From positions 352,001 to 416,000 of IMG/VR virus record IMGVR_UViG_3300028840_006907: a DNA stretch of 64,000 bases. One strand, given 5' to 3'. Shown here piece by piece: positions 20,129-64,000 of this stretch (the stretch's first letter is position 1; each line of letters opens with the position of its first letter). This DNA is from a virus. A program made the translations under genes and the position numbers. The notes under the pieces were generated by a model, which had not been told where the DNA came from, ran no database searches, and was given only the letters and a program-made list of their open reading frames with translations.

Positions 20129-21496
20129 GTGCCAGTATATCATTCAGGAAATTTAAGAGATACTGATAGGCCAGAATGGAATTATCCATTAAGACCTCAG
20201 GTTGCAGATTTAACAAAGCCTTTGGCTCCCCGAAATCTTATGGTAACAAGTCCTTATGATGTTGGAAAATTGGATATTCGTTGGGATAATCCTAATATTC
20301 TTCCACAAAATAGTGGATTAAATATTGTAGGATGTAATGTATACCGTTCTATTGATAGTCCTTTCAGATTTGTAAAAATTAATGAGACACCCGTTACCGT
20401 ACTTTTTTATCGTGATGAGACAAAAGAAACTTTGGTAACAAATGAAAATGCTACTCCTACAATACGTCATGATTTAGTTCCAGAAGAGAAATGGTCTGTA
20501 TGGGCTCAAAGAAGACCTATAGTAAGACCTGATTCAAATGGTGTTACAACTGATAGAGTTCAAGATATTTTACTTGAAATAGATAATGGTGATGGTACAT
20601 TTCTTGAAGTACCAGCTTTTTCTGTAAATGGAAAAACAGGTGAAATTGTACTTATAAGAACTCCTGTTTATAATTACGAAGTTAGCCAAATAGTTCCTCC
20701 ACGTTTACCATATCCACCTAATGGTCGCGTCAGAATTACATATAGATATTTAGAACATTCGGTAATTACTGTATTAAATCAAAGAATTTATTATAAAGTG
20801 ACAACAGTAGCAGTAGATCCGGATGATCCTGCTTCTTTTATTGAAACTCCGTTGGATGAGGTTTCATCACGTACTGCTTTTGATGTAGAATCGATTGATT
20901 ATATTTGGAGAGAAGGAATTTTACGTAATCGTTGGTTATTAGAGCAGAGCGGTGAAAGAGTGAAGATATTTATACGTAGATGGATGGGAGAAAAGTGTCC
21001 ATCTCATCAGACAAATTATGGACAAAGCTATAATGATTGTACTGATTGTTATGGTACTAATATTGTAGGTGGGTATGATGGTCCTTATGATGTGATAATA
21101 GCACCACCAGAGTCAGAGAAGATGATAGAATTAGCGGACATGGGACTTCATATTACTTACGATTGGGCAACTTGGATGGGTCCCTATCCGCTTCTAAATG
21201 AACGTGATGTTATTGTTCGTCAGAATAATGAGCGTTATGTTGTAGGTCCTGTGACTCCTCAGGGATCACGAGGATGTATTTATCAGCATCATTTTACTAT
21301 GAGCTATATTGACCAAGGAGATATTAGATATCAGATACCGATTGAAGGTGGGGAAACTAGTGTGCCTTCTTCATATGATCCTTATCGTGAAACTGCTCCG
21401 ACTGATGCAAGTCCAGCAATAAACGATAAGCCTGAAATTCCTGATGACAAGATCATTAGAGGCCGTACAGTAACCTTCGAAAATATTACCTATTAA
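20129..21496 (+). CDS. Hypothetical protein (455 aa), possible fibre-associated
   Basis: GTG start 3 nt after the stop of the 2441-aa gene with AGAGG upstream; no recognisable motifs. Confidence 0.6.
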   Translation: MPVYHSGNLRDTDRPEWNYPLRPQVADLTKPLAPRNLMVTSPYDVGKLDIRWDNPNILPQNSGLNIVGCNVYRSIDSPFRFVKINETPVTVLFYRDETKETLVTNENATPTIRHDLVPEEKWSVWAQRRPIVRPDSNGVTTDRVQDILLEIDNGDGTFLEVPAFSVNGKTGEIVLIRTPVYNYEVSQIVPPRLPYPPNGRVRITYRYLEHSVITVLNQRIYYKVTTVAVDPDDPASFIETPLDEVSSRTAFDVESIDYIWREGILRNRWLLEQSGERVKIFIRRWMGEKCPSHQTNYGQSYNDCTDCYGTNIVGGYDGPYDVIIAPPESEKMIELADMGLHITYDWATWMGPYPLLNERDVIVRQNNERYVVGPVTPQGSRGCIYQHHFTMSYIDQGDIRYQIPIEGGETSVPSSYDPYRETAPTDASPAINDKPEIPDDKIIRGRTVTFENITY

Positions 21497-21613: not shown

Positions 21614-23116
21614 ATGGATGTAACATTAGCAGGATTTAATGTCGATACAAATGTCCTTAGGGAGATGGAAGAAATCACCGGTAAACGGGATGATCTTACC
21701 CCAGAAGTTTTATCTGCCTCATATGCCCGGATAAGTCGGGATCCTCGGCCAATTGGTGAATTAAGATTAGATTCTAAAAACGAAGTAGAAAAAGCTCGGA
21801 AATCAAATTCAAGTATCATTTTTAAAATGGGCCATCATTCTGTAGCGGAGCATGCTGTATTTAATCTTGATGTTGTAGGACTTTCTCGATATGCTATTGA
21901 AGAGTTGGAAAAATTTCGATTATGTTCATATACAGAAAAATCTCAACGTTATATAACCCTTGATGATGACTATGTTGTTCCTCCTGAGATTGCTGGATCA
22001 AAGTTTGAAGATGAATTTAGGGAAACTATTAAAATGCAGAATGAAGCATACCATGAATTTTACGGTGCTTTAAAAGAACATATCTTTAAAAAGCATGCTG
22101 ATCTTGCCAGTGATCCAAAGAATAAGAATTTATTAGAAGGTTGGGCAAAGGAAGATGCCAGGTATTTAGTAAGCATTGCGACTGAAGCTCAGGTTGGAGT
22201 GACCGTCAATGCCCGAAACTTGGAACTGATGTTAAGAAGATTTGCTTCTAATCCGTTGCAGGAAGTCCAGGAACTGGGGAGAAAAATTTACCAGGAGGTG
22301 GAAAAAATTGCCCCTTCTATAATTATTTTCCATGAAGGTAATGAGTATGACCGTGATACATATCCTAGACTTGAAAAAGTAGGACGTGATTTATTTAATG
22401 GAAGCCATGTCTCATTTTTGGAAGGAGATGTCTCATTAATTGAATTTGATGAAGAAGCAGATGAAACTATAGCTGCATCATTACTTTATAAAGGTCTGAA
22501 TATCCCTTATAAAGATGTCATAACATTTGTTTATGATATGAGTGAAGAGGATACTGATAAAATTGTTAATGCTGTTTGGGAAGATGCCCAATTATATGAT
22601 TCGGCCCTCAGAGAATACGAATTTGCCAATCTTACCTATGAAGTCTGTTTATCTTCCTCTTGTTTTGGTCAACTAAAACGTCATCGTATGTCTTCTATTA
22701 TTGCTCAACCATACAATCCGAACAGAGGTGTGACTATTCCAGAATCGATTAAAGAGATTGGTATGGAAAAGAGATTTCAGGAGATTATTAAAAAGACAGA
22801 TGATGTATTTTTTAAGGTATACGAAGATTTACCATTGGTAGCTCCTTATATATTAACAAATGCTCATAAAAGACGGGTCATAATTCGGGTAAATGCTCGT
22901 GAGTTATATCATATGTCCCGATTAAGAGAGGATAATCACGCTCAATGGGATATAAAAAATGTGGTGACTAGAATGTGCATGTTGGCTCAGACAGAGATGC
23001 CATTTACATTTGCTCTTCTTTGTGGTAAAGACATGTATAATATGACATATAAAAATCATTTCGGTAATGAACCAAAAGTGAAAGAGGTGAAATTACCAGG
23101 TAAGCGTAAATTTTAA
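21614..23116 (+). CDS. thyX: FAD-dependent thymidylate synthase ThyX-like, tandem two-domain form (500 aa)
   Basis: C-terminal half has canonical ThyX signatures (QLKRHRMSS, VNARELYHMSRLREDNHAQWDIKN, PFTF). N-terminal half is a second Thy1-like domain (GHHSVAEHAVFNL...KFRLCSYTEKSQRY...VNARNLELMLRRFASNPLQEVQ) with RHR replaced by KFR. Confidence 0.8.
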   Translation: MDVTLAGFNVDTNVLREMEEITGKRDDLTPEVLSASYARISRDPRPIGELRLDSKNEVEKARKSNSSIIFKMGHHSVAEHAVFNLDVVGLSRYAIEELEKFRLCSYTEKSQRYITLDDDYVVPPEIAGSKFEDEFRETIKMQNEAYHEFYGALKEHIFKKHADLASDPKNKNLLEGWAKEDARYLVSIATEAQVGVTVNARNLELMLRRFASNPLQEVQELGRKIYQEVEKIAPSIIIFHEGNEYDRDTYPRLEKVGRDLFNGSHVSFLEGDVSLIEFDEEADETIAASLLYKGLNIPYKDVITFVYDMSEEDTDKIVNAVWEDAQLYDSALREYEFANLTYEVCLSSSCFGQLKRHRMSSIIAQPYNPNRGVTIPESIKEIGMEKRFQEIIKKTDDVFFKVYEDLPLVAPYILTNAHKRRVIIRVNARELYHMSRLREDNHAQWDIKNVVTRMCMLAQTEMPFTFALLCGKDMYNMTYKNHFGNEPKVKEVKLPGKRKF

Positions 23117-23126
23117 AGAGAATCAT

Positions 23127-23804
23127 ATGAATATAAATCTGAATATTGTCCAACCACCTCATGTAGTCTTTCTCCTTTCAGGGGAATCTTTTCCAGCTTT
23201 GTTTTTCGATTGTTTTTTTAATTTATTGGATTATTGTAACAGGCAGAATATCGGATATACAATAATTAGGCGGTATTCTCCTGTTGTTTATTTTGTTCGA
23301 AACATGTGTTTAGGTGGAAATGTTTTGAGAGGGGAGAATCAGAAACCCTTTGATGGTAAGATAAACTACACACATTTAATGTGGATTGATAATGATATTG
23401 CATTTAAACCCGCTCAATTTCAATCTTTGTTGAACTCAAATATGGATATTATAGCCGGGGCTTATAAGATGGCTGATGGGAGACATTATGCCATTGTTGA
23501 AAATTGGGATGAAGAATATTTTCAAAAAAATGCTTCTTTTAAATTTCTTACTGATGAAGACATCAGGGGTAGAAAAGGTTTTATTGATGTAGATTATACT
23601 GGTTTAGGTTTTATGCTTGTAAAAAAGGGTGTTTTTGAATCTTTGAAATATCCTTGGTTCAGACCTAAATTCTATAAATTTGGTGATTGTTTTGATTTCT
23701 GTTCGGAGGATGTCGGGTTCTGTCGGGATATAAAAGAAAAGGGTTATAAAATCTATATCGATCCGAGAATAATTGTGGGTCATATTAAAGATATTGTTAT
23801 TTAA
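23127..23804 (+). CDS. Putative GT-A fold (GT2-like) glycosyltransferase
   Basis: WIDNDIAF (DxD-like) and GLGFMLVKKGVFESL...SEDVGFCRDIKEKGYKIYIDPRIIVGH match the usual GT2 C-terminal pattern; starts 11 nt after the thyX stop. Confidence 0.55.
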   Translation: MNINLNIVQPPHVVFLLSGESFPALFFDCFFNLLDYCNRQNIGYTIIRRYSPVVYFVRNMCLGGNVLRGENQKPFDGKINYTHLMWIDNDIAFKPAQFQSLLNSNMDIIAGAYKMADGRHYAIVENWDEEYFQKNASFKFLTDEDIRGRKGFIDVDYTGLGFMLVKKGVFESLKYPWFRPKFYKFGDCFDFCSEDVGFCRDIKEKGYKIYIDPRIIVGHIKDIVI

Positions 23805-25216: not shown

Positions 25217-26233
25217 ATGAGTTGTGGCGTGGATATAGGAACATGTTTCCTTGTAAGTGCTAGAAATGATGATAATAATCAAATTCAAATAAAGTCTATT
25301 CGGGATGCTTTTCTTGACATGGAGAACAACCCCCAAGTCAAAAACATGATGAAAATGTCAGGTGCAAATTTTATTGAATCTGACGACATTCTTTACATAA
25401 TTGGTGATTCCTCAGTGGTAGTAGCAAACATATTCCAGAAAGAAGCTCGTAGACCATTGAGTCGGGGTGTTATTTCTCCTGGTGAACTTGAAGCTGAGAA
25501 AATTCTGTTGGTTTTGATAAAGGATATATTGGGGAATTGTAAAGTGCAGGATGAAACTTGTTATTATTCGGTTCCTGCCGAGCCCATAGATCATGAAGCT
25601 GATGTGATCTATCACCAAGCTATGTTTAGTAAACTTATTGGTTCATTAGGTTACAAGCCAGTTGCTTTAAATGAGGCAGCAGCAATCATTTATAGCAATT
25701 GTGGAAAGGAAAAATTTTCGGCGATATCTATTTCTTTTGGTGCCGGTTTAACAAATGTTTGTCTTATGTATCAAACGATTATTGGTATGGCTTTTAGTGT
25801 AAATAAAGCTGGAGATAATATTGATGACGGTGCTGCTCAGGCTCTGGGAACTACTTCCAGTAGAATACAGTCAATAAAAGAAAAGGGTATAAATCTTCTT
25901 GATCCTAATGAAGGTGATCCGAAGACTTTCCGGGAACGTGAAGCTATTATCATTTATTATAAAAGTTTGGTTTTATATGTACTTGATAAAATCAAAGAGG
26001 AATTTTTGAAACGTCAAGGTACGATTGAATTACCTAATGCTATTCCGATTGTGCTTTCAGGTGGAACTAGTTTGCCGAAGAATTTTAAAGAGTTTTTTGA
26101 AGCCGGTTTTAATGAAGTAAAGGATAAATTCCCAATTCCGATTTCAGAGATTAGAATGGCAGAACAACCATTAAATGCAGTAGCACAGGGTCTATTAATT
26201 GCCGCTATGAACCATGATGAAGGGTCAAAATAA
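25217..26233 (+). CDS. Actin-fold ATPase (MreB/ParM/Alp-like)
   Basis: Phosphate-1 GVDIGTCFLVSA, phosphate-2-like ISISFGAGLTNVCLM, adenosine motif IVLSGGTSLP; 338 aa; AAGGAGG SD. Confidence 0.6.
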   Translation: MSCGVDIGTCFLVSARNDDNNQIQIKSIRDAFLDMENNPQVKNMMKMSGANFIESDDILYIIGDSSVVVANIFQKEARRPLSRGVISPGELEAEKILLVLIKDILGNCKVQDETCYYSVPAEPIDHEADVIYHQAMFSKLIGSLGYKPVALNEAAAIIYSNCGKEKFSAISISFGAGLTNVCLMYQTIIGMAFSVNKAGDNIDDGAAQALGTTSSRIQSIKEKGINLLDPNEGDPKTFREREAIIIYYKSLVLYVLDKIKEEFLKRQGTIELPNAIPIVLSGGTSLPKNFKEFFEAGFNEVKDKFPIPISEIRMAEQPLNAVAQGLLIAAMNHDEGSK

Positions 26234-27579
26234 TGTATCAACGCTTGATGTATGCAATAAAAAGACGGATTTTGGATGAGAGTGAAGATGCATTCAAAGA
26301 ACATCCTGCTTTTTCTGAAAAAGTAAGAGTTTACAATAAATTTCCCTATGATGAACGGGTTCAATTTGGGATAATTCTCCGAAATGCTTCTTCTTCATTG
26401 ATACGTCTTTCTGCTGATAATTTTATGTCAGATCTTTATTCTCATGTCAAAATAGCTAAACAAGGAACTCATCCTGGAATAGCTATTGAATGGGTGAGAG
26501 AGAATGAAGGAAATATTACTGAATATGTTGAGGAGGATGTTTCTTCTCAGTTAGATCCGACTAGAAGGATATTTACAACGAATTATCCTATTACTGCCGG
26601 ACCAAATAATACTGATTATGCTACTAGTCCGGGACAGGTCAGAGTGACTCTAGATGGTACTAAGGTGATGCCTCAATTTGTTTATGGTGAAGATAGCGAG
26701 GTATGGTTAACACAGGCTCCGAATGCTGGGACGGTTGCGAAGATATGGTATAATCGTCGTGCTATTGTACCACCTAGTATTCATATTGTTGAATTTACTG
26801 AGGATAATCAGTTTATAGTAGGTATGATTTATGTGATTGATAATGAACTTTTGATAGAAGAAACGACTGGGCTTGAGACTACGGTTAATTTGGTTAATAG
26901 TAATGTTGATACTAATTCTGAAGAAATTTGGTTGACCTATAAAAATGGTACAAAAATAGTGGCTTTGGAAAATGGTGTTGATTACAGTATTAATTATGCT
27001 ACTGGATTGATTACTTTTCTTCAACCATTACAAAGCAATTATAGTATTTACGCTGATTATCGTTATCAGCCTCCTGGAAATGTTACAGGTCCTTATGTAT
27101 TTACTGAGTATCAAGAAAATCATGAGGCAATTCCAGGAGTAGTCCTCTCAATTGGTCGTCGGGCTAAGAAGGGTGATAAGCAGGCTGTTATTGTTTCTCA
27201 ATCGAATGAACTGCAGGCTAAAATTTATGGTGGTCATTGGGAAATTTCATTGGATTTAGCGGTGATTGCTAAAGATCCGATGCAGATGGAACAAATGACT
27301 GATCATATTATCTCTTATTTGTGGGGTGAGAGAAAAAATAGGTTGGAGTATGAGGGAATCGCTTTAAATTCAGTAGAGCCTACTGGAGAGACAGAGGAGA
27401 CTCATGTAGAATCAACTGGTGATCTTTATTACGAATCGGGTGTTTCCATAAATCTTCAATCTGAATGGCAGAGATTTGTGCCATATAATCCGATTTATCG
27501 ATTAAGAGATATTAACATGATAGCTGATTTAAGACCAGTCATAAAGGGTCCGATCATCAATTTCGAGAGGTTAACTTGA
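26233..27579 (+). CDS. Hypothetical virion/tail-associated protein (448 aa)
   Basis: Start overlaps the actin-like stop (TAATG); contains a weak copy of the beta-rich module also seen in the sheath (VRVTLDGTKV...VWLTQAPNAGTVAKIWY). Confidence 0.6.
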   Translation: MYQRLMYAIKRRILDESEDAFKEHPAFSEKVRVYNKFPYDERVQFGIILRNASSSLIRLSADNFMSDLYSHVKIAKQGTHPGIAIEWVRENEGNITEYVEEDVSSQLDPTRRIFTTNYPITAGPNNTDYATSPGQVRVTLDGTKVMPQFVYGEDSEVWLTQAPNAGTVAKIWYNRRAIVPPSIHIVEFTEDNQFIVGMIYVIDNELLIEETTGLETTVNLVNSNVDTNSEEIWLTYKNGTKIVALENGVDYSINYATGLITFLQPLQSNYSIYADYRYQPPGNVTGPYVFTEYQENHEAIPGVVLSIGRRAKKGDKQAVIVSQSNELQAKIYGGHWEISLDLAVIAKDPMQMEQMTDHIISYLWGERKNRLEYEGIALNSVEPTGETEETHVESTGDLYYESGVSINLQSEWQRFVPYNPIYRLRDINMIADLRPVIKGPIINFERLT

Positions 27580-27624: not shown

Positions 27625-28044
27625 ATGCCTCTTTATGAATATAAGTGTAAAAAATGTGAATTTGAATTTGAAGAACTCATCCTGAATAAGGAAGGTAGTC
27701 TTTTAATAAAATGTAGGAGATGTGGAGCTGAAGCTGAAAGAAAGATGAGTTCATTTTCATCAGTAGTTCAGGGAAGTTCCAATGAATCGGTTGATGTTAA
27801 AATCGGTCGGGAGGCAGATAAAAGATGGGAATTATACCATAATCGCCAGGAAAAGAGGCGTGCTGGTAAAGAGTTAAAAGAAGTAAAGTTATCAAAAAAA
27901 GGTGGTCAGTATAGACCTGTGATGGCTTTAGGAAGTGAAAAGACAATTGAAAATAGAAATAAGTATTCTGAGTCCCTGCAACAACATAGGCAGGATAGAG
28001 AAAAACGTGGTCAGTCTCAATTTAGTGAAACTGGCTCATTTTAA
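27625..28044 (+). CDS. FmdB-family Zn-ribbon protein
   Basis: MPLYEYKCKKCEFEFEE...CRRCGAE matches the FmdB N-terminal signature. Confidence 0.65.
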   Translation: MPLYEYKCKKCEFEFEELILNKEGSLLIKCRRCGAEAERKMSSFSSVVQGSSNESVDVKIGREADKRWELYHNRQEKRRAGKELKEVKLSKKGGQYRPVMALGSEKTIENRNKYSESLQQHRQDREKRGQSQFSETGSF

Positions 28045-28156: not shown

Positions 28157-30958
28157 ATGGGACTTGGCCCTTTTGATTCGTTTTCGTTTCCTGATGTGTA
28201 TACGAAAACATTGAATGAAGCGCCTACCGTAACTGCGTCTGGAGATATCCGCATTCCTGCTTTTATTGGAGTAGCTGATGAAAATGTTCCTGTTAATAAC
28301 TATGAAATGATTCGCGGTTCAAGTGCATTGGCCGATAATAAAATAGTTAGGGAAAATGTTTCCAGTCAGGTAACAGGTAGTAACCGTAATTTTAGAGTCT
28401 CTTACTATCCTATTGTAAAAGGGGATGGTAATGGTACCACTACGACAGATCCAAACGATGTAACGGTTGAGGTTGATGGAGAAGCAGTTGCAGTCTCATC
28501 AGTTGACGGAGAGAATGGTTGGATTTATCTAGTAGGTATCCCACCAACAGGAAGTACAGTGCTTATCACTTATTATTTCAAACGTAATGATACATTACAT
28601 ACATTGGAAGATCTCAGTGATCAGGTTGATGGTACACGTACTGTTTTTCAAACACATTATACTCCGATTGTAACAGGTGATGGTAGTGGTACAACTACAA
28701 CAACTACTTCTCATGTTACAGTTTTAGTAAACAATTCAGCGGTTACTGTTTCTGCAGTGGATGGAGATTCAGGTCAAATTACTCTAGCTTCTGCACCATC
28801 GGTTGGTCAGACAGTGAAAGTAACTTATTATTCTAATGAATGGCAAGATACGGCAGATATCTTACCTTCACCTTATGTTACAGAAGTAACACAGGTAGGT
28901 TATAGCCCAGGTACATCTGATTTTATTGATGAGACAGACTATGTTCTTGATACAACAGGGAATTTTAGTACAATAAACTGGGGCCATTCAGTAAAAGTTA
29001 GTGCCGGTACAACAACAACAGGTGGTGAAGCTTTTGATGATACACAAATCACTACTACTCTGTTTGATAATCGGACATTTCGTAGAGCTATGACAGGTAC
29101 TGTTGATGGTACTAATGCAAATTTTGTGATGGAAGCTACTCCGAAGAGTGGTGAAGGTCGTGGTATTGATACTGATGATCCCGATCTTGTTACAGCTTAT
29201 TATGGTACTAATCCAACAGATGCTACAGTTATAGATGTAATTCAATTAACAGCTTCTTCAAGAACGGCTGTTTTGGCATCTGCTCCTCCAGCAGGAAATA
29301 ATGTCTATATCACTCAATATAGCAATTTACTTCCTGATGATACTTGGACTTTAACTGATAAGACTTCCGGTGCTACAGGTATTGGAGTTTATGATGTTGA
29401 GGGTACTAATGCTGGTACGGCTATGGACGTTCAGTGGTCAACAACTGATACAACAGTTGCTGATCCAGATTTCTCTTCTGAGAATGTGACTTATCCGAAT
29501 GGTACCGGTGCAGGTAACAGTGATGCTCAAGTGTCGCCTGGATTTGCTGTTCAAGAAACGGTATCTTTAACTTTTGCCGATGCTACCACTTATACTGTAA
29601 GTTCAGACCAGACAAGTACTGGTTCTGGTTCAGGTGGCGATAATACAGGATATTTAAATCAAACTTACATTGACAGTGTAACGGGTTTCCGTATTACTGT
29701 TAATGAGGGTACATTAGTTATATATCAGGCGGGTGATAAATTAGGTTATACTGTTAATCCTGATTTTGTCACTTCTACGACACCAACAAGAGCAATACCA
29801 GGTGTTCGTGTAAGAGTATCTAATACTACTGATGTAGTGGTAGGAGATACAGGTTTAGTAAAAACGTATAATTTATCAGGACAAGAACCGAATGTTGGAG
29901 ATTTCTATTATGTCTCTTTTACTGAAGCTGTACAATTTGATTCTGATGGTATTCTCATAGGTGGAGCTAAATTATACAGTCAGGAGAAAAATGTAATAGC
30001 TGATACAGGTCCTTTATCTATAACAAATAATCTTGGAATGGCCGCTCATCTTGCTTTTTTGAACGGTTCAAGTTTAATTGCCTTACTACAGATAGAGAAG
30101 ACATCCGGTGCTGATGATGCCCCTGATTCAAGGTATATTGCGGGTATTGATTATTTCAATGAGCCCATGGAAGGTGGTACAAGACCAGCTCTTATGCAAC
30201 CAGTAACAACTTCATCTGCGGTTATCAATTATTTGAGAACTTCAAATACCATTCAATCTGGTATACGTTATGCGAATGAACGTTTCTCTTATTTTGGTTT
30301 CCCGACAAATACGTTACCAACGAGTGCTCAGACTTTTGCTCGATCAATGAATAATGAGTTGATGGTAGCTGTTTATCCTGATGGTGCTGTGACAACTATC
30401 ACGGATGAATTAGGTAATGAGACTGAATATTTGGTAGATGGAGCTTATATGGCAGCAGCGATTGCTGGAAGAGATACTTCACCTGCTTTCGATGTAGCAG
30501 AACCATTGACAAGAAAACCTATTGTAGGATTCCGTCGTTTATTCCGTAGAATGGATTCGGTAACTGCTGCACAAACGGCAAATGCTGGTATAACTCTTCT
30601 TGAAGAGTTAGCTGCAGGTATTGAGGTTAGATTTGCTTTGACAACTGATATATCATCGGTATTAACGAGAACTCCTTCAGTTATTAGAATAAAGCAATTT
30701 GTTCAGAGAGGGGCTCGTTCGGTATTACAGCCTTATATTGGTTCCAAGCTATTAGTTCAACGTAGAGCAGAAATAGAGCAGACTCTTAAGTCTTATCTAG
30801 CTGCCTTACAGCAAGCTAATATTATTACTGGTTGGACAGGTGTAAAGGCTGAACTGGATCCGAATGATCCGACGATTATTAATGTGGAAGCTTTTTATAG
30901 CCCAGTATTTCCGTTGTTATGGATTGTGATTACTTTTAATCTTCGTTCTAATATATAA
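28157..30958 (+). CDS. Contractile tail sheath protein (933 aa) with inserted tandem beta-rich domains
   Basis: Sheath-like N-terminus (PDVYTKTLNEAPTVTASGDIRIPAFIGVA) and C-terminal region (INYLRTSNTIQSGIRYANER...); gene order sheath-tube-chaperones-TMP; GGAGG SD. Confidence 0.65.
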   Translation: MGLGPFDSFSFPDVYTKTLNEAPTVTASGDIRIPAFIGVADENVPVNNYEMIRGSSALADNKIVRENVSSQVTGSNRNFRVSYYPIVKGDGNGTTTTDPNDVTVEVDGEAVAVSSVDGENGWIYLVGIPPTGSTVLITYYFKRNDTLHTLEDLSDQVDGTRTVFQTHYTPIVTGDGSGTTTTTTSHVTVLVNNSAVTVSAVDGDSGQITLASAPSVGQTVKVTYYSNEWQDTADILPSPYVTEVTQVGYSPGTSDFIDETDYVLDTTGNFSTINWGHSVKVSAGTTTTGGEAFDDTQITTTLFDNRTFRRAMTGTVDGTNANFVMEATPKSGEGRGIDTDDPDLVTAYYGTNPTDATVIDVIQLTASSRTAVLASAPPAGNNVYITQYSNLLPDDTWTLTDKTSGATGIGVYDVEGTNAGTAMDVQWSTTDTTVADPDFSSENVTYPNGTGAGNSDAQVSPGFAVQETVSLTFADATTYTVSSDQTSTGSGSGGDNTGYLNQTYIDSVTGFRITVNEGTLVIYQAGDKLGYTVNPDFVTSTTPTRAIPGVRVRVSNTTDVVVGDTGLVKTYNLSGQEPNVGDFYYVSFTEAVQFDSDGILIGGAKLYSQEKNVIADTGPLSITNNLGMAAHLAFLNGSSLIALLQIEKTSGADDAPDSRYIAGIDYFNEPMEGGTRPALMQPVTTSSAVINYLRTSNTIQSGIRYANERFSYFGFPTNTLPTSAQTFARSMNNELMVAVYPDGAVTTITDELGNETEYLVDGAYMAAAIAGRDTSPAFDVAEPLTRKPIVGFRRLFRRMDSVTAAQTANAGITLLEELAAGIEVRFALTTDISSVLTRTPSVIRIKQFVQRGARSVLQPYIGSKLLVQRRAEIEQTLKSYLAALQQANIITGWTGVKAELDPNDPTIINVEAFYSPVFPLLWIVITFNLRSNI

Positions 30959-31016: not shown

Positions 31017-32153
31017 ATGAATATACAAGAAATGAAAACTAAAGTTGCAAATAACATTTTGGAGTTTTTAATTGATCCGACGGTATATCCACCTGAACGT
31101 CATATCTATTTTCGTCCGGAAGAAATCCTAGACAATAGTTTTTATGAAAATGCGAAGGCGGATTCAAATAAAGCCTATGGTGATCAAAGACATAACTCCG
31201 ATTTTTATCCAAACCGACCAATTAGGGAGGCGTCATCGATGGAACGTAAAACTATTATAGCAAGTTTGGATGTGCTCTCTCAAACCTTTAACGAGAGCGA
31301 TCCTATAGCTAAAGATCTCAGAACGATGGCTTATGCCGTTGCGAAAATGAGTGAAGAAGAACTTAAAAATAGACTGGTAGAATCGAAGGAAAAAATGGTT
31401 AAATGCCCCAAGTGTGGTGGTAATGTCATGGAAAAAACCGGTTATTGTTTAGCTTGTAAGAAAAAGATTTCTGAAATGAAAAAAGCTGAAGAAGAAGTAC
31501 CGGTTGAAAAAGAAGCTGGAAAGGTAAAAGGTCCAGGAGTTCCGGATGGGACCGGTCCCATGAAAGATAGTCCAGAGTGCCCATATTCTGAAAAGAAAAA
31601 GGAAGCTGAGATAAAGGATTTTTGGAATAAGGAAGCTACTGATGCTGTGAGAAAATCTCTTATCGCTGAAGTTTCTGATGCTTGTGATGATAAAGAAGAA
31701 AAAGAGGAGAAAGAGGCCAAAGAAGCTCCTGCTGAAGAAAAACCTGAGGAAAAAGAAGTAGAAGCTAAAGAAGCTCCTGCTGAAGAAAAACCTGAGGAAA
31801 AAGAAGTAGAAGCTAAAGAAACTCCTGCTGAAGAGAAACCTGAGGAAGAAGAAAAATCAGCTACAGAGAAAAAAGTAGCTGAAGAAAAACCTGAGGAAAA
31901 AGAGGCTAAAAAAGCTCCTGCTAAAGAGGAAGTAACTGAAGAAGTTGTTGAAGAGGTGGAAAAGAATGCTTCTTCTTGTGGTACTAAAAAAGAAGAAAAA
32001 GAAGAAAAAGAAGCCACAAAAGTTGATACAGACATCTTAAATGCCTCTTCCCAATTTGATGGGATTGAATTACAAGCAGGTCTGATTACAAGTGATGACA
32101 TAGGAGATTTAAGTAAAGCTGAAGAAGAACGCTTAAGTCAACTTTTTAAATAA
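31017..32153 (+). CDS. Zn-ribbon protein with tandem E/K-rich repeats
   Basis: CPKCGG...CLACKK followed by KEAPAEEKPEEKEVEA repeats; located between sheath and tube genes. Confidence 0.65.
   Translation: MNIQEMKTKVANNILEFLIDPTVYPPERHIYFRPEEILDNSFYENAKADSNKAYGDQRHNSDFYPNRPIREASSMERKTIIASLDVLSQTFNESDPIAKDLRTMAYAVAKMSEEELKNRLVESKEKMVKCPKCGGNVMEKTGYCLACKKKISEMKKAEEEVPVEKEAGKVKGPGVPDGTGPMKDSPECPYSEKKKEAEIKDFWNKEATDAVRKSLIAEVSDACDDKEEKEEKEAKEAPAEEKPEEKEVEAKEAPAEEKPEEKEVEAKETPAEEKPEEEEKSATEKKVAEEKPEEKEAKKAPAKEEVTEEVVEEVEKNASSCGTKKEEKEEKEATKVDTDILNASSQFDGIELQAGLITSDDIGDLSKAEEERLSQLFK
31719..31862 (+). repeat. 48-bp in-frame tandem repeat, 3 copies (first two identical)
   Basis: AAAGAAGCTCCTGCTGAAGAAAAACCTGAGGAAAAAGAAGTAGAAGCT repeated at 31719 and 31767; third copy diverged. 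Confidence 0.8.
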
Positions 32154-32188: not shown

Positions 32189-32869
32189 ATGGCTAGAGAT
32201 AATGATAGCTATATCTTTCGTAAAGGTGTAACGCCTAATACCCTCTCGGTTATAAGTTCGAAAAATCGAATATTCGCGTATAACCCTCAGGCTCAATTGG
32301 TACAACTAGGCGTAGTTGCAACTTTTGATCCTTCGGAGGCTCGAACAATAGAACCTGTTCGTGGAATCGGTTTTGGAGACCAAGTAGCCGAACTAGTGCC
32401 TAGTGTCACAGATCCGATGACAATATCGGTAACCAGAACTGCTTTGTATCTATCGAATATCTATCAGATATTTGGTTATAAAGCTGGTATGGATGGTATC
32501 TGTCGATCATTGAAACATCACAGATGGCCTTTTGATATCCGTCAAGAGGTGGTCTTTAGTGCACTGGCTACGAGGAGTGTTGGTGGTAGTACGGAGTATT
32601 TAGAGACACCAGCGGTAGTATCTACTGATGAGAAAGGTGAATACAATGAATTTGCTTTATTGACTTTCTATGAAGCATGTTGGATTTCCGATTATTCAGT
32701 ATCATACGCTTCTGATGCAGCTCTAGTACAAGAAACTGTGACACTTAATGTGTCTGATATTCTTGCTGATGCAGGTGAGTTCCCATGGAAGAGTGATGAG
32801 ATTGAACCTTATTCAGTACTGGATACAGATCCAGCTAAGTCGAAACGATTTGATATTGTTACAACTTAA
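32189..32869 (+). CDS. Putative tail tube protein
   Basis: Position immediately after sheath and before chaperone/TMP genes; 226 aa; no diagnostic motif. Confidence 0.4.
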   Translation: MARDNDSYIFRKGVTPNTLSVISSKNRIFAYNPQAQLVQLGVVATFDPSEARTIEPVRGIGFGDQVAELVPSVTDPMTISVTRTALYLSNIYQIFGYKAGMDGICRSLKHHRWPFDIRQEVVFSALATRSVGGSTEYLETPAVVSTDEKGEYNEFALLTFYEACWISDYSVSYASDAALVQETVTLNVSDILADAGEFPWKSDEIEPYSVLDTDPAKSKRFDIVTT

Positions 32870-57200: not shown

Positions 57201-57431
57201 CCTCTTGATGTTTCGGGAGGTGCAGGACGTGCCTATATCCAGAGTGATGGAAAAATAATCGTAAGTACTATTGATGGTCAGTTACCTGATACGAAAAATT
57301 ATGAAGTAGCATATTATGTGGAAGGGGAAACTGGTTCTGAAGATATTAATGTAGCAGCAGTTGAGTCTTTAAAAATTGGGACTCTAACAATTGCTTATGA
57401 TACACCACGAGAACAACTTCCTTCGTTATAA
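54258..57431 (+). CDS. Large baseplate/fibre structural protein (1057 aa)
   Basis: ORF track; position immediately before the propeller-containing fibre. Confidence 0.7.
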   Translation: MAIPAPEILLPTGGMDYATDIATQTLSGTTSADTQEIQINGSVHGVSYTAGETIWSWTGTLTLGSNVINIIAIEKVTSLPSPATTITITLIPPEDEVITVSSPTGVQTLRYQDKIEIKNVQNPEPNTIGYNYYVSTQSGGIDGVYAKINTDYITEYTSYEDKATLINTVTDTTGNIRVTVTTEQITREYYYSVFFDQERYTELVEAELLPAVSFNQNTPFFFVVTAIIYDPVLGQVTESANSIELQSSPVTITTGIRTLPARTQNDIILTFSQDLLLSNTGTDTKPGTVVRDMMDPISEEMARVYVIQDFLARSLSVSSLLDFDDADGDGESDAVEDSIPKKALQLALMLTDPDDVQAVIDAQFDKLASNADTTRRSATYAVGEVTFFVTEAPIRDMVVNEGAIVSTLGDLDSGIQAQSYRTLATKILDYETRERFYNSTTGRYEMSLDVEALNVGEEGNTDSYTVKVVSSGADSNFQVENPNPISFGEDIESNYNLATRIMLAFFADTGTEGGYAKIAASVSGVRRTRIEKAGDPLMIRDYDPIREKHVGGKVDVYIQGSRSRQVTDQIAFSFESIVSSQGAQSEEQFLVINAVAFQFKTTNPRVTSHTPIFEVSRVYNATRAQEYDISGYQIIGDGNTVDLDETKAQNAAIGLAATDVIKVDYKFRSSDTFVLQNQPVNDIVSIVGQLSGTLTSDNWDLVTLEDPLAEGRSTIAQDSVRIKFANNLPLTGFQTITDEVHVMILGKNEPLDFLGADPTSIVVKNLAKTVTYVLNVDYRIDPGTDTEATEIIMIESGSISNGEQVLINYVAIENFIITYTTNELLETVQDELDEYKHACADAIAKQAIENGVDFAFTVVPKSNVVDFNTLTSQITTSIANFISQLDIGVSLTQSDVDNQIRKVDDVDYVVLPFTRMVKSDGSQIVRDDIGQVQFEVYNDGVTRSYITSATVLSYNTIDKGGDENKFRGVFENTVALILQDDPLDVSGGAGRAYIQSDGKIIVSTIDGQLPDTKNYEVAYYVEGETGSEDINVAAVESLKIGTLTIAYDTPREQLPSL

Positions 57432-57443
57432 GGAGCTTTATGT

Positions 57444-60400
57444 ATGGCTGAGAATTTAGGAACGGGTGTTTCTTTTGTTGATGAGAGTAATGGGTATAAT
57501 TATGATAAAGTTGTTTTCCAAAAACAAAAGCCACCTTTAGATACTGAATTAAATCTTGCTCAAGAGATACAAAATTTACTGGCAAAAAGACATATAAAAG
57601 GAATGCCTTCTGGTTGGTTAAATATAGAGGACTTTTATACAAGTTCATTATTAGAAAACCAATTTTATACCCAAGATCCGGACACAGCTATTCCAGAATA
57701 TGCTGTTGTGAATGGTATGGTTCTTTATGTGACTAACACTGGTACTTCTGAAACAAATTCAAATTTGATCACTCTTACTGATCCTCCTACCTCAGGTAAT
57801 CTTGTTAATGGTGTAATCCTAGAAGTATGGAGAGCTTTATTAGATACAGAAACCGATAATAACAGACCTGATTCAACAGTGGTTATAGATTCGTTAATGG
57901 CTATTGATGCCGTTACTGAAAATAGTGCCTGGACAGTCGGGGAAAATGGGCTTATTCTAGCTACTGAAAATGGTGGTCAAACATGGTCGGTTCAATTAAT
58001 TGATACAAAAAAGAAATTAAATGATGTTCATTTTATAAATACAACAGTAGGTTGGGTAGCCGGTGATAATGGTGCCATAGGTAGAACTTCATCTGGTGGT
58101 GTAACTTGGCTCGTATTACAGAGTGGCTATACTGAGAATTTCAATGGGATTCATGCAGCTACACATCTAATTGCTTGGGTTGCTGGTGATGGTGGTATTA
58201 TTCTTAAAACCGTCAATGGAGTTAACTGGTCGGCTCAAAATAGTAATGTTACAGCAAATCTTAATGATATTTATTTCTATGATAGTTTAGTAGGATGGGC
58301 AGTAGGAGATAATGGTACTATAATAAAAACCACTGATGGTGGATCCAATTGGATAACATTAACAAGTGGTACCACAGAAAATTTAAACGCTGTCTTTTTC
58401 TATGATTTAAATTTTGGTTTTGCTGTTGGTGATAATGGTACAATTTTAAGATCATCTGATGGTGGGCTGTCCTGGGTTGATCAATCTGGTAACATATACA
58501 CTGGTTCTGGTTATACAAGTCTTTCAGTGAATTACACTGATGTCACAATGGCCCCTTCTCTTGATATCCACGTGACCAATGAAGAGGTAACTTCCCAATT
58601 TACAGGTTCAAATAAAAATTGTACTGTAGTGAATGTTCCTATGACTAAAGGTGATGGGTTAGGTACAACAACGAATAGCCCTGCTGATGTCGATGGTGAG
58701 GGTAATTTAAGTACTGTTGTAACTGTAAATGGTACTTCTGTTCTTATAGATAGCATTGATGGAACTACAGGTCAAATTATTCTTAATCAGGCTCCTCAAG
58801 CATGTGATACAGTCCTTGTCTCTTATTGGCATAAAGTCAGCCCTGATATTTTTACGGGTAGGGCATGGATTACAGGGGCATCTGGAACAGTGTTGATGAG
58901 TCCAGACATTGGTGCTAATTGGAATCAACAAACTCCAAATACCAGCTATGATTTAAATGGTGTAAGTTTTGTTGATCAAAATAAGGGATGGGTAGCTGGA
59001 GCATTTTCAGTGATGCGACATACTGAAGATGGTGGTACTACATGGACTACTCAAATCAGTGATACCGTTTCTCGAAGGGTGCAACGGGTTTATAATGAAG
59101 GTAATGTAGATACTGTTATCTTTTTGGATGATGAAATGATCCATCCTGACACAAACATAGAAACGACAAAAAGAGTTCAAATTCAATATAAAATAAGAGT
59201 TATAGAAAATGTTGATCCCTTTTCATATCCGGATGCGGGGCTAGGCTCAGCGGGTATTGTGGCTCTAGGGCCAAATGCTACAGGATCATTTGCTTATCAG
59301 AACATGGGTTCTACGACAGGTGATTATGGTTTATGGCAAGCGAAATGCTCTAATACAGTAGATGGGTACGCATGGGCTATCCCAATGTTTTTTGTCAATA
59401 GAAGAAATAGCACTACTTTTAATGCTGCCAATAATACAAATGGTTCTAATGCTAAAGGTACTTCAAATATCCGACCTGATCTTTTGACCGGTGTTGATGT
59501 TGTAGATCAGGATATTCTTGATGTCAGGAGACAAATATTTATCCCTTCAGTGACTGAATTACTAAATAGTAGTTTTGATGCCCTTATGAATAATCAGTTA
59601 AAAACTCGATTTTTCAGACAAACCACTGGTGGTGATAGTTATTCTGTTGAGCCTTTACAATTGGATTATATCGCGCATGGTTCTGGTACTGAAATTGATG
59701 CTACATTGAGCGAGGCTGTTTCGGGACAAGTCACATCAATTACAACAACGAGTACAATATCTCAAAGTGTTCCTGCATCTACTTCTTTACCTTTTGATGT
59801 GACATTAAGTATTCCAGTAGGAACTCGGGGATTATTTCATCCTAATTCTATTTATTATACAGCTCGTTATGTAAGTAATAGTGCCACATATGATGGGAAA
59901 CCTATTCCGGGAGAATTTACTGGTATAGGTACAAATTCAGTAACGTTTAATTTTAGTGCAAAAGTAAACACTACAAATGAAGACACTAATTTAGTCAGTT
60001 ATGATATTGTGGCTCATTATGTAATATTTAGTCCTAAGTCATTGAGTAAAATTCCTTCTACTCCTCAGCTAGTAGAAAATACAGGAACGGTAAGTGAACC
60101 TTCTTTTTTCTATAGAGGAGTATTTACCAGTGAAACTTCTGGTAGAAAGATTGAAGAATGGGATTCAGGTATTTCAGGATATCCGAGTTATACTCTAGCC
60201 TATCCTGTTATAGAGGCAGGAAGTACTGCACAGGAAGCCCGAGCTTCTTCGATTGAGGTACATTTATATATAAGACTAACTAGTACTGAAATACAAAGTA
60301 TTAATCAGATTAAGATAAGTCAGGAAGTTTATCCTGATGTTGCAGATACGACTTCTTATTATAATCTTTACTGTGTCAGTGAAATAAATAATATCACTTC

Positions 60401-61520
60401 TGGTTTTAGTTTTAAGATAGATGATATTGTAATCACAGATGCCATTTATATTGACAGTGCTTCTGGTTTCCCCTTTATCGAAGGTAATGTCATTGAAATT
60501 GTGGGTATGGCATTGGCAGCTACCGGTAATTCTTATACCAGAAATGGTGCAAGTGTTAATTTTACTCAGGGTGAGAAAAAAATAAGCCCATTTGCTTATT
60601 CATCTCGTTTAAAAATAACTTCATTTCCTCCTGGGTCTATATCAAGTGTTCAGTTTACTAGCCTCGATGCTGATAGTGGTCAAATCTCCACAGCTTCTGG
60701 GGTATTTCTTGGTATAAGTACAACAGAAACTGTGAATAGTTTAACTGATCATTTTGCTTGGGTTGATGTTGGAGCGGGAGATGTTCTTACTCCAGTAACA
60801 GTGACAGGATTTAATACCACGACTTTAACAGTAAATTTCGCTACTCCTATATCACCAACTAGTGTCAAGATACAGGCTTTAATAAAACAGGCTAATTTAA
60901 TTTATGGCACTGATGCTGATGATGGATTACAGATAGCTTATAATTTTATTCCGAGTCAAACTCCTACAAATCTTCCTTCCAGTTTAATAGTAGGGATGGT
61001 TACTAATCCTACAAGTATTTATATATCAAATTTAGGTACTGGAGGCAGTCTTGTAGATAAGGAACCTTATAGTTTCCCTATTGATAGTATCCCTGTAAAT
61101 AATAGCTCTATTATTGATGATAATGAATTTTATAATTTAGATCTATTTAGATTTTCTAATTTCTCAGTAGATAGTGGGTTTGTTCAGATGCCTACTATTG
61201 TTCCTGGTTCTTTTGGGGAAGAGTTAACTTTTTCAAGTTTAACTACTGATGAGTTGTTACGTACTTTTTATAGTACATGTGATACAGAATTTGCCTTCAG
61301 AACAGAAGGTATAAAAATTGGAATACCGAGAAAGATATTTATCGCTACTATAGGAAGAGTAAAAGAGAACTCTACTCAATTATTACGAGGTGAATATGTT
61401 CTTATAATAATTTCCAGAGATAGCCTTACTGATTTAGAAAATTACACAGGTTGTGAAACAGGAAGTGGTAATGTTATCGGGATCTACCGATTACCGAATA
61501 AGCCATTGGTAAGAAAGTAA
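57444..61520 (+). CDS. Tail fibre protein with 7-bladed BNR/Ycf48-like beta-propeller domain (1358 aa)
   Basis: Seven repeats of W-x-x-G-x-x-G-x-I-x-x-T-x-(D/N)-G-G-x-(T/S/N)-W, e.g. AWTVGENGLILATENGGQTWS, GWVAGDNGAIGRTSSGGVTWL, AWVAGDGGIILKTVNGVNWS. Confidence 0.75.
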   Translation: MAENLGTGVSFVDESNGYNYDKVVFQKQKPPLDTELNLAQEIQNLLAKRHIKGMPSGWLNIEDFYTSSLLENQFYTQDPDTAIPEYAVVNGMVLYVTNTGTSETNSNLITLTDPPTSGNLVNGVILEVWRALLDTETDNNRPDSTVVIDSLMAIDAVTENSAWTVGENGLILATENGGQTWSVQLIDTKKKLNDVHFINTTVGWVAGDNGAIGRTSSGGVTWLVLQSGYTENFNGIHAATHLIAWVAGDGGIILKTVNGVNWSAQNSNVTANLNDIYFYDSLVGWAVGDNGTIIKTTDGGSNWITLTSGTTENLNAVFFYDLNFGFAVGDNGTILRSSDGGLSWVDQSGNIYTGSGYTSLSVNYTDVTMAPSLDIHVTNEEVTSQFTGSNKNCTVVNVPMTKGDGLGTTTNSPADVDGEGNLSTVVTVNGTSVLIDSIDGTTGQIILNQAPQACDTVLVSYWHKVSPDIFTGRAWITGASGTVLMSPDIGANWNQQTPNTSYDLNGVSFVDQNKGWVAGAFSVMRHTEDGGTTWTTQISDTVSRRVQRVYNEGNVDTVIFLDDEMIHPDTNIETTKRVQIQYKIRVIENVDPFSYPDAGLGSAGIVALGPNATGSFAYQNMGSTTGDYGLWQAKCSNTVDGYAWAIPMFFVNRRNSTTFNAANNTNGSNAKGTSNIRPDLLTGVDVVDQDILDVRRQIFIPSVTELLNSSFDALMNNQLKTRFFRQTTGGDSYSVEPLQLDYIAHGSGTEIDATLSEAVSGQVTSITTTSTISQSVPASTSLPFDVTLSIPVGTRGLFHPNSIYYTARYVSNSATYDGKPIPGEFTGIGTNSVTFNFSAKVNTTNEDTNLVSYDIVAHYVIFSPKSLSKIPSTPQLVENTGTVSEPSFFYRGVFTSETSGRKIEEWDSGISGYPSYTLAYPVIEAGSTAQEARASSIEVHLYIRLTSTEIQSINQIKISQEVYPDVADTTSYYNLYCVSEINNITSGFSFKIDDIVITDAIYIDSASGFPFIEGNVIEIVGMALAATGNSYTRNGASVNFTQGEKKISPFAYSSRLKITSFPPGSISSVQFTSLDADSGQISTASGVFLGISTTETVNSLTDHFAWVDVGAGDVLTPVTVTGFNTTTLTVNFATPISPTSVKIQALIKQANLIYGTDADDGLQIAYNFIPSQTPTNLPSSLIVGMVTNPTSIYISNLGTGGSLVDKEPYSFPIDSIPVNNSSIIDDNEFYNLDLFRFSNFSVDSGFVQMPTIVPGSFGEELTFSSLTTDELLRTFYSTCDTEFAFRTEGIKIGIPRKIFIATIGRVKENSTQLLRGEYVLIIISRDSLTDLENYTGCETGSGNVIGIYRLPNKPLVRK

Positions 61521-62487: not shown

Positions 62488-64000
62488 ATGACTCAAATAT
62501 ATCTACCAGATTCAGAAGAACTCGGAAGACGCCGATTCCATGATGCTAAAAGTGATCGTCGTAATTTAAAAAATCTCGCTGAGCAACGTCTCCTTGAGAT
62601 GCGAACGTTATTGCCTTCTAATTACCCTAAAGATCCCTATAGTAGTAATCTTGCTTTATTCCATCGTTTTAATGCTCGGGAGCTGTCTCGAATAAGAATC
62701 TCTAATGATGATATATCAAGAGATTCTCAATACACTACGACAAGACCAGAGTATCTTCATCAGATTCTTGGTGAGAGGCTTTTTTTAGGCAATAGAATAG
62801 CTCCTCTTGGTTACAATGACCAGACATATAGAGAATTTTTAATAGCGATTAAAAACACTTATTTGCGGGGATCGCGGGTTGATGATATTGAAGCATTAGC
62901 CAGTCAGTTTACAGGTCAGGAAGTTATCATAAAAGAGTTGTATAGGGAATTAAGGAATCCTGATACATCTCTTGATGTCACTGACACAAATTACATGGTT
63001 GTTGAAGCATTGATACCTGGTCAATTACCTGCTGGTTATAATATAACTTCATTATTAAATGATTTAGATTTTTACATTAATTTAGTGCGGCCAGCGCATG
63101 TTTTATATGATACACGATTGATATGGACTGAGACCATTGATGTAAATAAGACAACAGATATCTATTTTGGTGATACCGGTGGTGGTTGTGTCCCTCTTTA
63201 TATTTTTGACCCTTTTGATGAAACAACGCTTATGGCGTTGCAGGTATTTGTCCTTCCTACTAGTGAAGGAGCAACAGGTCGAATAGATTCCATTCATCAT
63301 TGGGATTACCTTTTTTATTTGGAAGATGGCACCAGAGTATTAACTGAACCAGGTACTCAGGGAACACAGATTTTTGATGTAAATGGTCGTCAGATTAGTT
63401 TTAGCTCTCTTGAAATAGGTGATCATGTAAAAATAAATTATCAAATTATACCTGGTAATTTTCAATTCTGGTGGTATCCTGTAGGTTTGTTTCCTACATG
63501 GAGTTCACAGTTCTATAGAGATTATTACAGACTTCCCATATTCCAGGAATATGTAAAAAAACATATGGATTCTAAGGGGAGATTTCCTCTTCAGATAAGA
63601 ACAACTGAAACGACCGTTTGTGATCGTTGGGTAACAGATGCTCTTCAGCCTTATTATGAAGATTTAAGAACAAATTGTTCCAGTGGAAGTGTCCAGTCTA
63701 AAGATTATTCTTCTACTCTTAACATCAGAATGGGAAGTGGTCATTTTGCCAATCCTTATGGTACAAACCAGACAGCTCTGCCTGGAAATGAATTTGCTTT
63801 TTTCATGGAAAACACTCCCTTAACTGATGGATCGAGTAATCCAGCTACAGTTTCAGATGTTTCTGTGATGTTAGATGGAAGTTCTTTACCTCCTCAACCG
63901 GTAGTATATGTCGATGCTAGTTCCGGGAAAGTGCAATTAAGTGAGGACCATGAATATTGGGATAATACAGCATTAACTTTTCCTATTCCTGGGGAAGAGT
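62488..64000 (+). CDS. Hypothetical structural protein, 3'-truncated by window edge (at least 504 aa)
   Basis: ATG at 62488 follows an in-frame TGA at 62476; I translated the frame by hand to nt 63999 without a stop. Not in the ORF track, presumably because it has no stop within the window. Confidence 0.65.
   Translation, partial: MTQIYLPDSEELGRRRFHDAKSDRRNLKNLAEQRLLEMRTLLPSNYPKDPYSSNLALFHRFNARELSRIRISNDDISRDSQYTTTRPEYLHQILGERLFLGNRIAPLGYNDQTYREFLIAIKNTYLRGSRVDDIEALASQFTGQEVIIKELYRELRNPDTSLDVTDTNYMVVEALIPGQLPAGYNITSLLNDLDFYINLVRPAHVLYDTRLIWTETIDVNKTTDIYFGDTGGGCVPLYIFDPFDETTLMALQVFVLPTSEGATGRIDSIHHWDYLFYLEDGTRVLTEPGTQGTQIFDVNGRQISFSSLEIGDHVKINYQIIPGNFQFWWYPVGLFPTWSSQFYRDYYRLPIFQEYVKKHMDSKGRFPLQIRTTETTVCDRWVTDALQPYYEDLRTNCSSGSVQSKDYSSTLNIRMGSGHFANPYGTNQTALPGNEFAFFMENTPLTDGSSNPATVSDVSVMLDGSSLPPQPVVYVDASSGKVQLSEDHEYWDNTALTFPIPGEE

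Follow-up and report, generated by a model that had tools for sequence, protein, structure and literature searches.

A small all-beta module shared by the tail sheath and other predicted tail proteins of an uncultured megaphage

Is a repeat in the tail sheath gene of a large virus shared with other structural proteins, how did its copies arise, and what might they do on the virion? We addressed this question in a stretch of 64,000 nucleotides (nt) of viral DNA (IMG/VR record IMGVR_UViG_3300028840_006907, positions 352,001 to 416,000), hereafter called the window. An earlier note, made from the letters of this DNA, had described a beta-rich unit in two tandem copies in the sheath gene at 28157-30958, a close copy in a fibre gene and weaker copies in two further genes, and had proposed domain shuffling among structural proteins, with the unit as a possible surface-exposed binding domain.

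The 64-kb window has a guanine-plus-cytosine (GC) content of ~36% and no tRNA genes, and its + strand carries nearly all of the long open reading frames (ORFs). An identical sheath protein is encoded on public contigs, the longest being 469,617 bp, and 12,468 nt identical to the window were recovered from a 388,651-bp contig of the Joint Genome Institute (JGI), designated L007. The closest annotated relatives are Tunturiibacter phage Tunturi_5 (308 kb) and an uncultured 485-kb phage (LR745208); Bacillus phage G is more distant. Based on these contig matches and relatives, we assign the window to the block of tail and baseplate genes in an uncultured megaphage of ~470 kb. ORFs are named below by their first coordinate.

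The module in the sheath and in other proteins

The sheath gene and its repeat units, numbered in amino acids (aa) and located with a hidden Markov model (HMM) and profiles, are as follows.

28157..30958, + strand, tail sheath gene; 933 aa, three module copies
28346..28594, + strand, sheath module copy 1 (c1); aa 64-146, HMM and profile matches
28601..28849, + strand, sheath module copy 2 (c2); aa 149-231, the unit modelled singly
29075..29338, + strand, sheath module copy 3 (c3); aa 307-394, divergent and missed by the earlier note

Sequence comparison identifies the product of ORF 28157-30958 as a contractile tail sheath protein. The annotated sheath of Tunturi_5 shares 35% identity with it across 96% of the length, and the C-terminal third of the window protein can also be aligned to those of phage G and cluster C mycobacteriophages. 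The Pfam family Phage_sheath_1C stayed under its gathering score in the window sheath (19.8 vs 26.9 bits; expectation value (E) 8.3e-4, aa 841-929) and passed it in some close homologues, for example P0051 at 28.3 bits; we ascribe the sub-threshold score to divergence and do not count it against the assignment. A PHROGs scan gave no family for the sheath or for ORFs 26233, 57444, 20129 and 62488, and phmmer against PDB sequences gave nothing useful for the sheath, ORF 26233 or ORF 20129. The full-length sheath was modelled by AlphaFold2 using 65 homologues, with a mean predicted local distance difference test score (pLDDT) of 86.8, and ~311-323 of its residues align to solved sheaths. Thus, roughly 310-320 of the 933 residues make up the conserved core, and about 600 belong to additional domains. 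All three modules lie in one excursion of ~540 aa (aa ~61-600), which separates the N-terminal strands from the conserved core at the C-terminus, and the model shows a repeated secondary-structure pattern at the module copies.

The module is ~83-88 aa long and has a period of 85 aa in the sheath. A conserved N-terminal strand, 'E-x-V/L-S-x-Q-x-x-G-x-x-x-x-F', is part of the unit and lies upstream of 'Y-x-P-I-V'. Both sheath peptides quoted in the earlier note are exact (starting at aa 83 and aa 168; nt 28403-28831), but the copies number three instead of two and the unit is longer than had been seen. In the best local alignment, c1 and c2 are 52% identical; c3 shares 33-35% identity with either, and its domain E-value was 0.04 with an HMM of the other two copies and 5.9e-23 with a sheath-family profile. 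Conservation is 56% in c1 and c2, which have no gaps, 47% in c3 and 62-68% in the sheath core. The nearly invariant module residues, F, P, G, G and L, occupy core or loop positions, with no obvious ligand site, and the linkers between modules are conserved within each position.

An HMM built from c1 and c2 only was searched against all six-frame ORFs of the window. It gave significant matches beyond the sheath in ORF 57444 (E 5.9e-11, 37.2 bits), ORF 20129 (E 2.6e-5) and ORF 26233 (E 3.9e-5), the bit scores of the last two being 19.2 and 18.6 in one order or the other. The outcome named in the earlier note as refuting the idea, an HMM without significant matches beyond the sheath, therefore did not arise. 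The match in ORF 57444 includes the peptide that had been quoted as a close copy, at nt 58641-58832. The in-window part of ORF 62488 reached E 0.32. A second, sheath-only profile of 58 units, all taken from sheath homologues, gave E 6.5e-20 for ORF 57444, 9e-13 for ORF 26233, 5.9e-8 for ORF 20129 and 4.9e-5 for ORF 62488. With the complete 62488 gene, taken from contig L007, the E-value was 4.4e-12 and three divergent copies were found. HMM iteration within the window converged at six copies without ORF 62488, whose copies were recovered by the deeper profile and the complete gene. In total, the window and its immediate continuation hold 8-9 module copies in five proteins. The weaker copies proposed for ORFs 26233 and 62488 were thus found, that in 62488 by the sheath-only profile and not by the two-copy HMM; the carriers named earlier are genuine, and ORF 20129 had been overlooked.

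Could these resemblances be chance or compositional matches between sequences rich in T, G, V and D? Such an account could draw on the weak in-window match of ORF 62488, which scored 16.4 bits with profile A1 (60 units, near-identical to the sheath-only profile) when the best of 40 shuffles scored 13.9 bits. For the two-copy HMM, 30 shuffles that kept local composition, together with reversed sequences, gave at most 8.4 bits over all six-frame ORFs, far below the scores of the other three proteins. The E-values from the sheath-only profile and from the complete 62488 gene also argue against it, as does the retention of the module matches in homologues. We therefore give chance resemblance a negligible probability. 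For ORFs 57444, 26233 and 20129, a compositional artefact is refuted by the shuffle controls and the independent profile.

The module-bearing proteins other than the sheath are as follows.

57444..61520, + strand, baseplate-associated protein (earlier called a fibre); 1358 aa, with a Ycf48/BNR-type beta-propeller
58575..58847, + strand, module in ORF 57444; aa 378-468, nested in the propeller
26233..27579, + strand, terminator-like protein upstream of the sheath; 448 aa, counterpart of Tunturi_5 gp324
26527..26769, + strand, module in ORF 26233; aa 99-179
20129..21496, + strand, 'minor tail' protein; 455 aa, counterpart of Tunturi_5 gp322 and phage G gp175
20510..20749, + strand, module in ORF 20129; aa ~128-207, with a loop inserted before the last strand
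62488..64000, + strand, 5' part of a large baseplate or fibre protein; gene of 1104 aa, continuing past the window end
63778..63954, + strand, first divergent module in ORF 62488; aa 431-489

ORF 57444 matches Pfam PSII_BNR (E 7.1e-27) and Ycf48 in the PDB. The propeller forms an insert at aa ~145-562, with blades flanking the module on both sides in the sequence; aa 2-144 and 563-678 are conserved in LR745208, where no propeller intervenes. The label 'fibre' is doubtful for this protein. It is more likely a baseplate wedge component, because a Baseplate_J gene (54258-57431) lies directly upstream and the propeller matches 'baseplate wedge initiator' genes of T4-like Synechococcus phages (cyanophages).

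ORF 26233 matched Tunturi_5 gp324, annotated by its depositors as 'tail terminator', in a tblastn search (25% over 135 aa, E 3e-10), and also LR745208. The gene order around it is conserved in contigs L004 and L005. It has no Pfam or PHROG match, and PDB sequences searched with a profile of 45 homologues gave no match either. A second motif, 'GVDYSINYATGLITFLQP...YADYRY' (aa 239-279), matches positions 135-174 of the Pfam family DUF2460 (E 0.0062, 16.5 bits). The module profile does not detect this motif, which may represent a further, more divergent domain of the module superfamily. The interval from copy 2 to copy 3 of the sheath contains a similar motif, 'DYVLDTTGNFSTINW' (aa ~260-275).

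ORF 20129 matched LR745208 (36%), Tunturi_5 gp322 (29%) and the gp175 region of phage G (26%) in tblastn, and is a putative minor tail protein by the annotation of Tunturi_5 gp322. The last strand of its module, 'RVRITYRY', was read from the sequence, and its homologues in contigs L002 and L006 also match the module profile. The N-terminal stretch appears fibronectin-III-like by eye, and a C-terminal stretch is Cys-rich (CPSHQ...CTDCYG); the C-terminal half is conserved out to phage G gp175. The complete 62488 gene corresponds to L007 10956-14270 and carries its copies at aa 431-489, 531-581 and 911-958, the last two of which lie beyond the window.

Distribution and history of the module

A module profile search of 1.84 billion cluster representatives returned 584 proteins at E <= 1e-3. 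The sheath core is present in 112 of 149 proteins taken from the best matches listed; most of the other 37 are short (<~500 aa) and are presumably sheath fragments. The three-copy layout is found in 111 of 120 sheath homologues, and also in Tunturi_5 and LR745208, where other domains lie between the copies; the 580-aa sheath of phage G is without it. Among the matches listed, all 120 homologues of ORF 26233 carry the module, which was undetected in the counterparts from Tunturi_5, LR745208 and L006.

In the ORF 57444 family, 82 of 120 homologues among the matches listed carry the module, always at the same nested position, and these make up 82 of the 83 homologues with at least 39% identity. 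Four homologues carry two copies. At <=35% identity the propeller is present and the module absent, and the LR745208 homologue is without the entire propeller-plus-module insert. Because distant homologues lack the module and LR745208 lacks the insert, domain accretion is directly visible in this family: the lineage-specific gain is real but not recent.

Global alignments between window copies give 24-47% amino-acid identity; their nucleotide identity is 40-54%, and the sole stretch of 85% nucleotide identity covers 40 nt of c1 and c2. As nucleotide identity is only 40-54%, the copies appear to be old paralogues. The copy in ORF 57444 is closest to sheath c1 (49% amino-acid identity), the class means to S1/S2/S3 being 45/40/30%. 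In a neighbour-joining tree, the fibre-type and terminator copies cluster, and the split of this cluster plus S1 from S2+S3 appeared in 61 of 300 bootstraps, compared with 3 and 0 of 300 for the alternative splits. For strict single-class splits in the 83-column module tree, no tested grouping was recovered and bootstrap counts were low. On these data, the ORF 57444 copy may have derived from sheath copy 1.

The closeness of that copy to c1 could also be taken as a sign of recent copying between the sheath and ORF 57444, by gene conversion or a mobile cassette. We consider this very unlikely. The nested position in ORF 57444 is the same in 82 homologues down to 39% protein identity, and fibre-family copies cluster together and not with the sheath copy of their own phage, although bootstrap support is weak. 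The nucleotide identities given above also argue against it, the one 85% stretch being short and confined to c1 and c2, and recent gene conversion was rejected on the 40-54% nucleotide identity between copies.

Elsewhere, P0251 and P0245 from the representative search show the module in other metagenomic phages: five copies in a protein of 494 aa that weakly matches Sheath_initiator (gp25-like), and one in a 1925-aa Baseplate_J protein. Because it also occurs in sheath-initiator-like and Baseplate_J proteins, the module seems to have been added to several distinct parts of contractile tails. In P0241, an ABC-transporter permease domain is fused to module copies, possibly as an artefact of gene calling or assembly. 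Of the domain shuffling proposed earlier, the shared homologous module and the visible gain in ORF 57444 hold; the process has the marks of ancient accretion, with diverged nucleotide sequences and a sheath layout that is largely conserved.

Predicted fold and possible role

The c2 unit was modelled singly by AlphaFold2 with an alignment of 60 units. The model is all-beta with six strands and a pLDDT of 95.5, and predicts a small barrel or jellyroll-like domain. Its nearest solved structural relatives are all peripheral domains of phage virion proteins, or the counterpart in an injection system: a baseplate-J-like protein of a Streptomyces contractile injection system (score 6.7), the N-terminal region of the CBA120 tailspike TSP4 (6.7; 62 residues at 1.8 A), the distal tail protein (Dit) of roseophage R4C (6.1; 23% identity) and the N-terminal domain of the T7 fibre gp17 (5.3), as well as cyanophage nozzle and fibre proteins and several neck adaptors. 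Among predicted viral structures, Foldseek returned fibre adaptors, neck proteins, baseplate wedge proteins and fibre N-termini.

In several sheath homologues, the module regions align with positions ~85-175 of the 205 positions of DUF2460 (PF09343), with all matches within ~80-202. Of 60 single units, 12 match this family weakly (best E 3.5e-4), and a match to the T7 fibre N-terminal family was seen for one. Three sheath homologues just reach the DUF2460 cut-off of 30.4 bits (P0048, 31.3; P0110, 30.7; P0106, 37.5). The window sheath has no DUF2460 match, all window proteins are below the cut-off, and the module regions do not cover the full 205 positions, which include a Dit-type core domain. 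Because of these sub-threshold scores and the partial coverage, we regard the module as a probable remote relative of the C-terminal-half subdomain of DUF2460 and not as a family member. A literature search on DUF2460 found no functional description.

We propose that at least five tail proteins have acquired an ~83-residue module as a peripheral decoration: the sheath, with three in each subunit, the terminator-like protein, the 'minor tail' protein, the baseplate-wedge-like protein (inside its propeller) and the large baseplate or fibre protein. The modules would sit on the tail exterior, away from the tube, because those of the sheath lie in the excursion between the core-forming N- and C-terminal parts. 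According to Evseev et al. (2022; PMC9230969), the tube-contacting core of known sheaths consists of these N- and C-terminal parts, and extra domains face away from the tube. The modules would build an outer layer on the sheath, proteins at both sheath ends would bear the same surface unit, and such shared outer units would stabilise a very large tail.

The modules may be mainly structural, serving as protein-protein contacts or spacer units in the outer layer. We give this role about an even chance and favour it because the module shows core-like conservation without insertions or deletions, invariant F, P, G, G and L residues and conserved linkers, and because its closest folds are adaptor or docking domains. 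Several points weigh against it. We infer alike the outward placement, the adjacency of the N- and C-termini and the contacts between modules. The naming of ORF 26233 as a putative tail terminator draws on the Tunturi_5 annotation, at weak similarity, and on gene order. Adhesion and stabilisation are hypothesised on an equal footing for extra sheath domains by Evseev et al. (PMC9230969), and the authors of the R4C Dit structure speculated on an adsorption role for its insertion domain (PMC10276861). An extended form of the structural role, in which the modules of the sheath, terminator-like and baseplate proteins interlock as a continuous outer cage from baseplate to neck that stabilises or gates contraction, is unlikely in our view; if true, such a cage would represent a principle of tail construction for which contractile systems offer no described precedent.

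Ig-like (immunoglobulin-like) decoration domains are thought to act as weak adhesins. The modules might likewise be weak carbohydrate-binding adhesins arrayed on the tail and baseplate, holding the virion at the host envelope or in mucus or biofilm; we regard this as the leading rival to the structural role, possible but rather unlikely. This would agree with the presence of the module beside a BNR propeller in baseplate proteins and with neighbouring genes for lectin-like Laminin_G_3 proteins; cell-wall recognition has been proposed for the R4C Dit insertion domain (PMC10276861), and Evseev et al. propose adhesion for extra sheath domains (PMC9230969). It fits poorly with the invariant residues, among which there are no conserved polar or aromatic candidates for binding, and with conservation near that of the sheath core, unlike the hypervariability typical of receptor-binding parts. 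The top-scoring structural relatives are protein-protein docking or adaptor domains, and the module also occurs in the terminator-like protein, which would be located where the tail joins the head, remote from the host surface. A specific receptor-binding role is not favoured.

Alternatively, accessory fibres or whiskers could dock on the modules, with the sheath, terminator and baseplate copies each recruiting an appendage protein of its own, like T4 gp10 XD2/XD3 (for gp12 and gp11) or the T7 gp17 N-terminus (for the adaptor and nozzle). The docking role of XD2/XD3 is documented (PMC8825819): gp10-like XD2/XD3 are small beta-jellyrolls with adjacent N- and C-terminal strands that act as docking modules between trimeric tail proteins. 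Extra sheath domains have also been suggested as carriers of tail appendages (PMC9230969). XD2/XD3, however, need trimeric packing round a three-fold axis (PMC8825819), and sheath subunits do not form trimers. With three modules on every sheath subunit, the partner molecules would have to be very numerous, and no candidate partner gene was identified. We consider docking platforms quite improbable and retain the structural role, contact or spacer, as the favoured one. A fold with adjacent termini like that of XD2/XD3 would also ease insertion of the module into a propeller loop.

The module appears to be a new sequence family within a known kind of phage tail decoration domain. The domain family so defined is compact, has a confidently predicted fold, is not covered by Pfam and marks tail proteins of an uncultured megaphage clade (contigs of 278-590 kb). 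The family can be used to annotate sheath, terminator-like and baseplate genes and to pick domain boundaries for structural work, and its nesting in a propeller, together with its presence or absence among homologues, is a clean example of tail proteins growing by collecting small domains. The module finding alone opens no new biological question.

Flanking genes and comparison with known systems

Other genes of the window, all on the + strand unless stated otherwise, lie around the module-bearing ones. Upstream of the tail block, 4009-6234 and 10383-12431 encode large Laminin_G_3 (concanavalin-like lectin) proteins (E 1e-22 and 2.5e-15), which are possible receptor-binding or adhesion proteins. 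Among the structural genes, 21614-23116 encodes a 500-aa ThyX (flavin-dependent thymidylate synthase) with two matched stretches, and 23127-23804 a PHROG 1574 protein.

The product of 25217-26233 is a 338-aa actin-family protein with an end-to-end match to Pfam Volactin (PF25216; E 1.2e-63). Its gene lies in the tail block, a few genes upstream of the sheath, a position kept in four contigs of related megaphages (L002 16956-17921, L004 5331-6347, L005 6167-7171, L006 5756-6772). The literature found places the Volactin family only in haloarchaea. An archaeal-virus origin, considered on account of this match, was rejected in view of the GC content of ~36%, the relatives Tunturi_5 (acidobacterial host) and phage G, and the bacterial-phage-type sheath. 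The phage-encoded volactin-like actin may merit separate attention.

Between the terminator-like gene and the sheath, 27625-28044 encodes a small CxxC...CxxC zinc-ribbon protein, and Pfam Zn_ribbon_8 (FmdB-like) is found in the gene that occupies this place in L004 and L005. Directly after the sheath, 31017-32153 encodes a 378-aa protein with a CxxC zinc-ribbon-like motif followed by very acidic, low-complexity 'EAKEAPAEEKPEEKEV' repeats; an antisense ORF at 31442-32101 is probably an artefact of this repeat. The 226-aa product of 32189-32869 is 46% identical to Tunturi_5 gp329, a 'virion structural protein', and matches phage G gp179 and gp180, which are encoded right after the phage G sheath gene. 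It is probably the tail tube protein.

Jumbo-phage sheaths with extra, outward-facing beta domains have been documented before, as has the reuse of small beta modules in different tail proteins, and the present family can be compared with several of these systems. The insertion domain of the R4C Dit (vB_DshS-R4C, PDB 8gtc_G), a candidate DUF2460 member, is barrel-like and similar to the T7 fibre N-terminus; it projects outward from the tube and aids inter-subunit contacts (PMC10276861). This domain and the module fall into one broad fold class. The R4C domain occurs as one copy in a distal tail protein of the siphophage and gene transfer agent (GTA) type, whereas the module occurs in a sheath, in three copies, and in terminator-like and baseplate proteins, all of which are without the Dit core domain.

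The T4 gp10-like XD2/XD3 domains (CBA120 TSP4-N, PDB 7rej) are likewise a reusable beta module of baseplate and tailspike proteins. They share only 18% identity with the module, with no link at the sequence level, and form trimers on a three-fold axis, unlike sheath subunits. The T7 fibre N-terminal domain (PF03906; 7boz) and neck adaptor or head completion domains (8hqo_R, 9lw9_D, 7y22_e) share the fold class at 14-22% identity and are found in different host proteins; the window module has no significant match to the PF03906 profile.

A parallel in setting is offered by the additional, often Ig-like beta-sandwich domains of jumbo-phage sheaths, which are directed away from the tube (Evseev et al. 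2022, PMC9230969). That work describes 'type 3' multi-domain sheaths that likewise belong to very large phages and have extra beta domains between the N- and C-terminal core parts; its excerpts do not describe the present sequence family or its sharing with terminator-like and baseplate proteins. The nearest folds of the module appear to be of the Dit-insertion and T7-fibre-N-terminal type more than of the classical Ig type.

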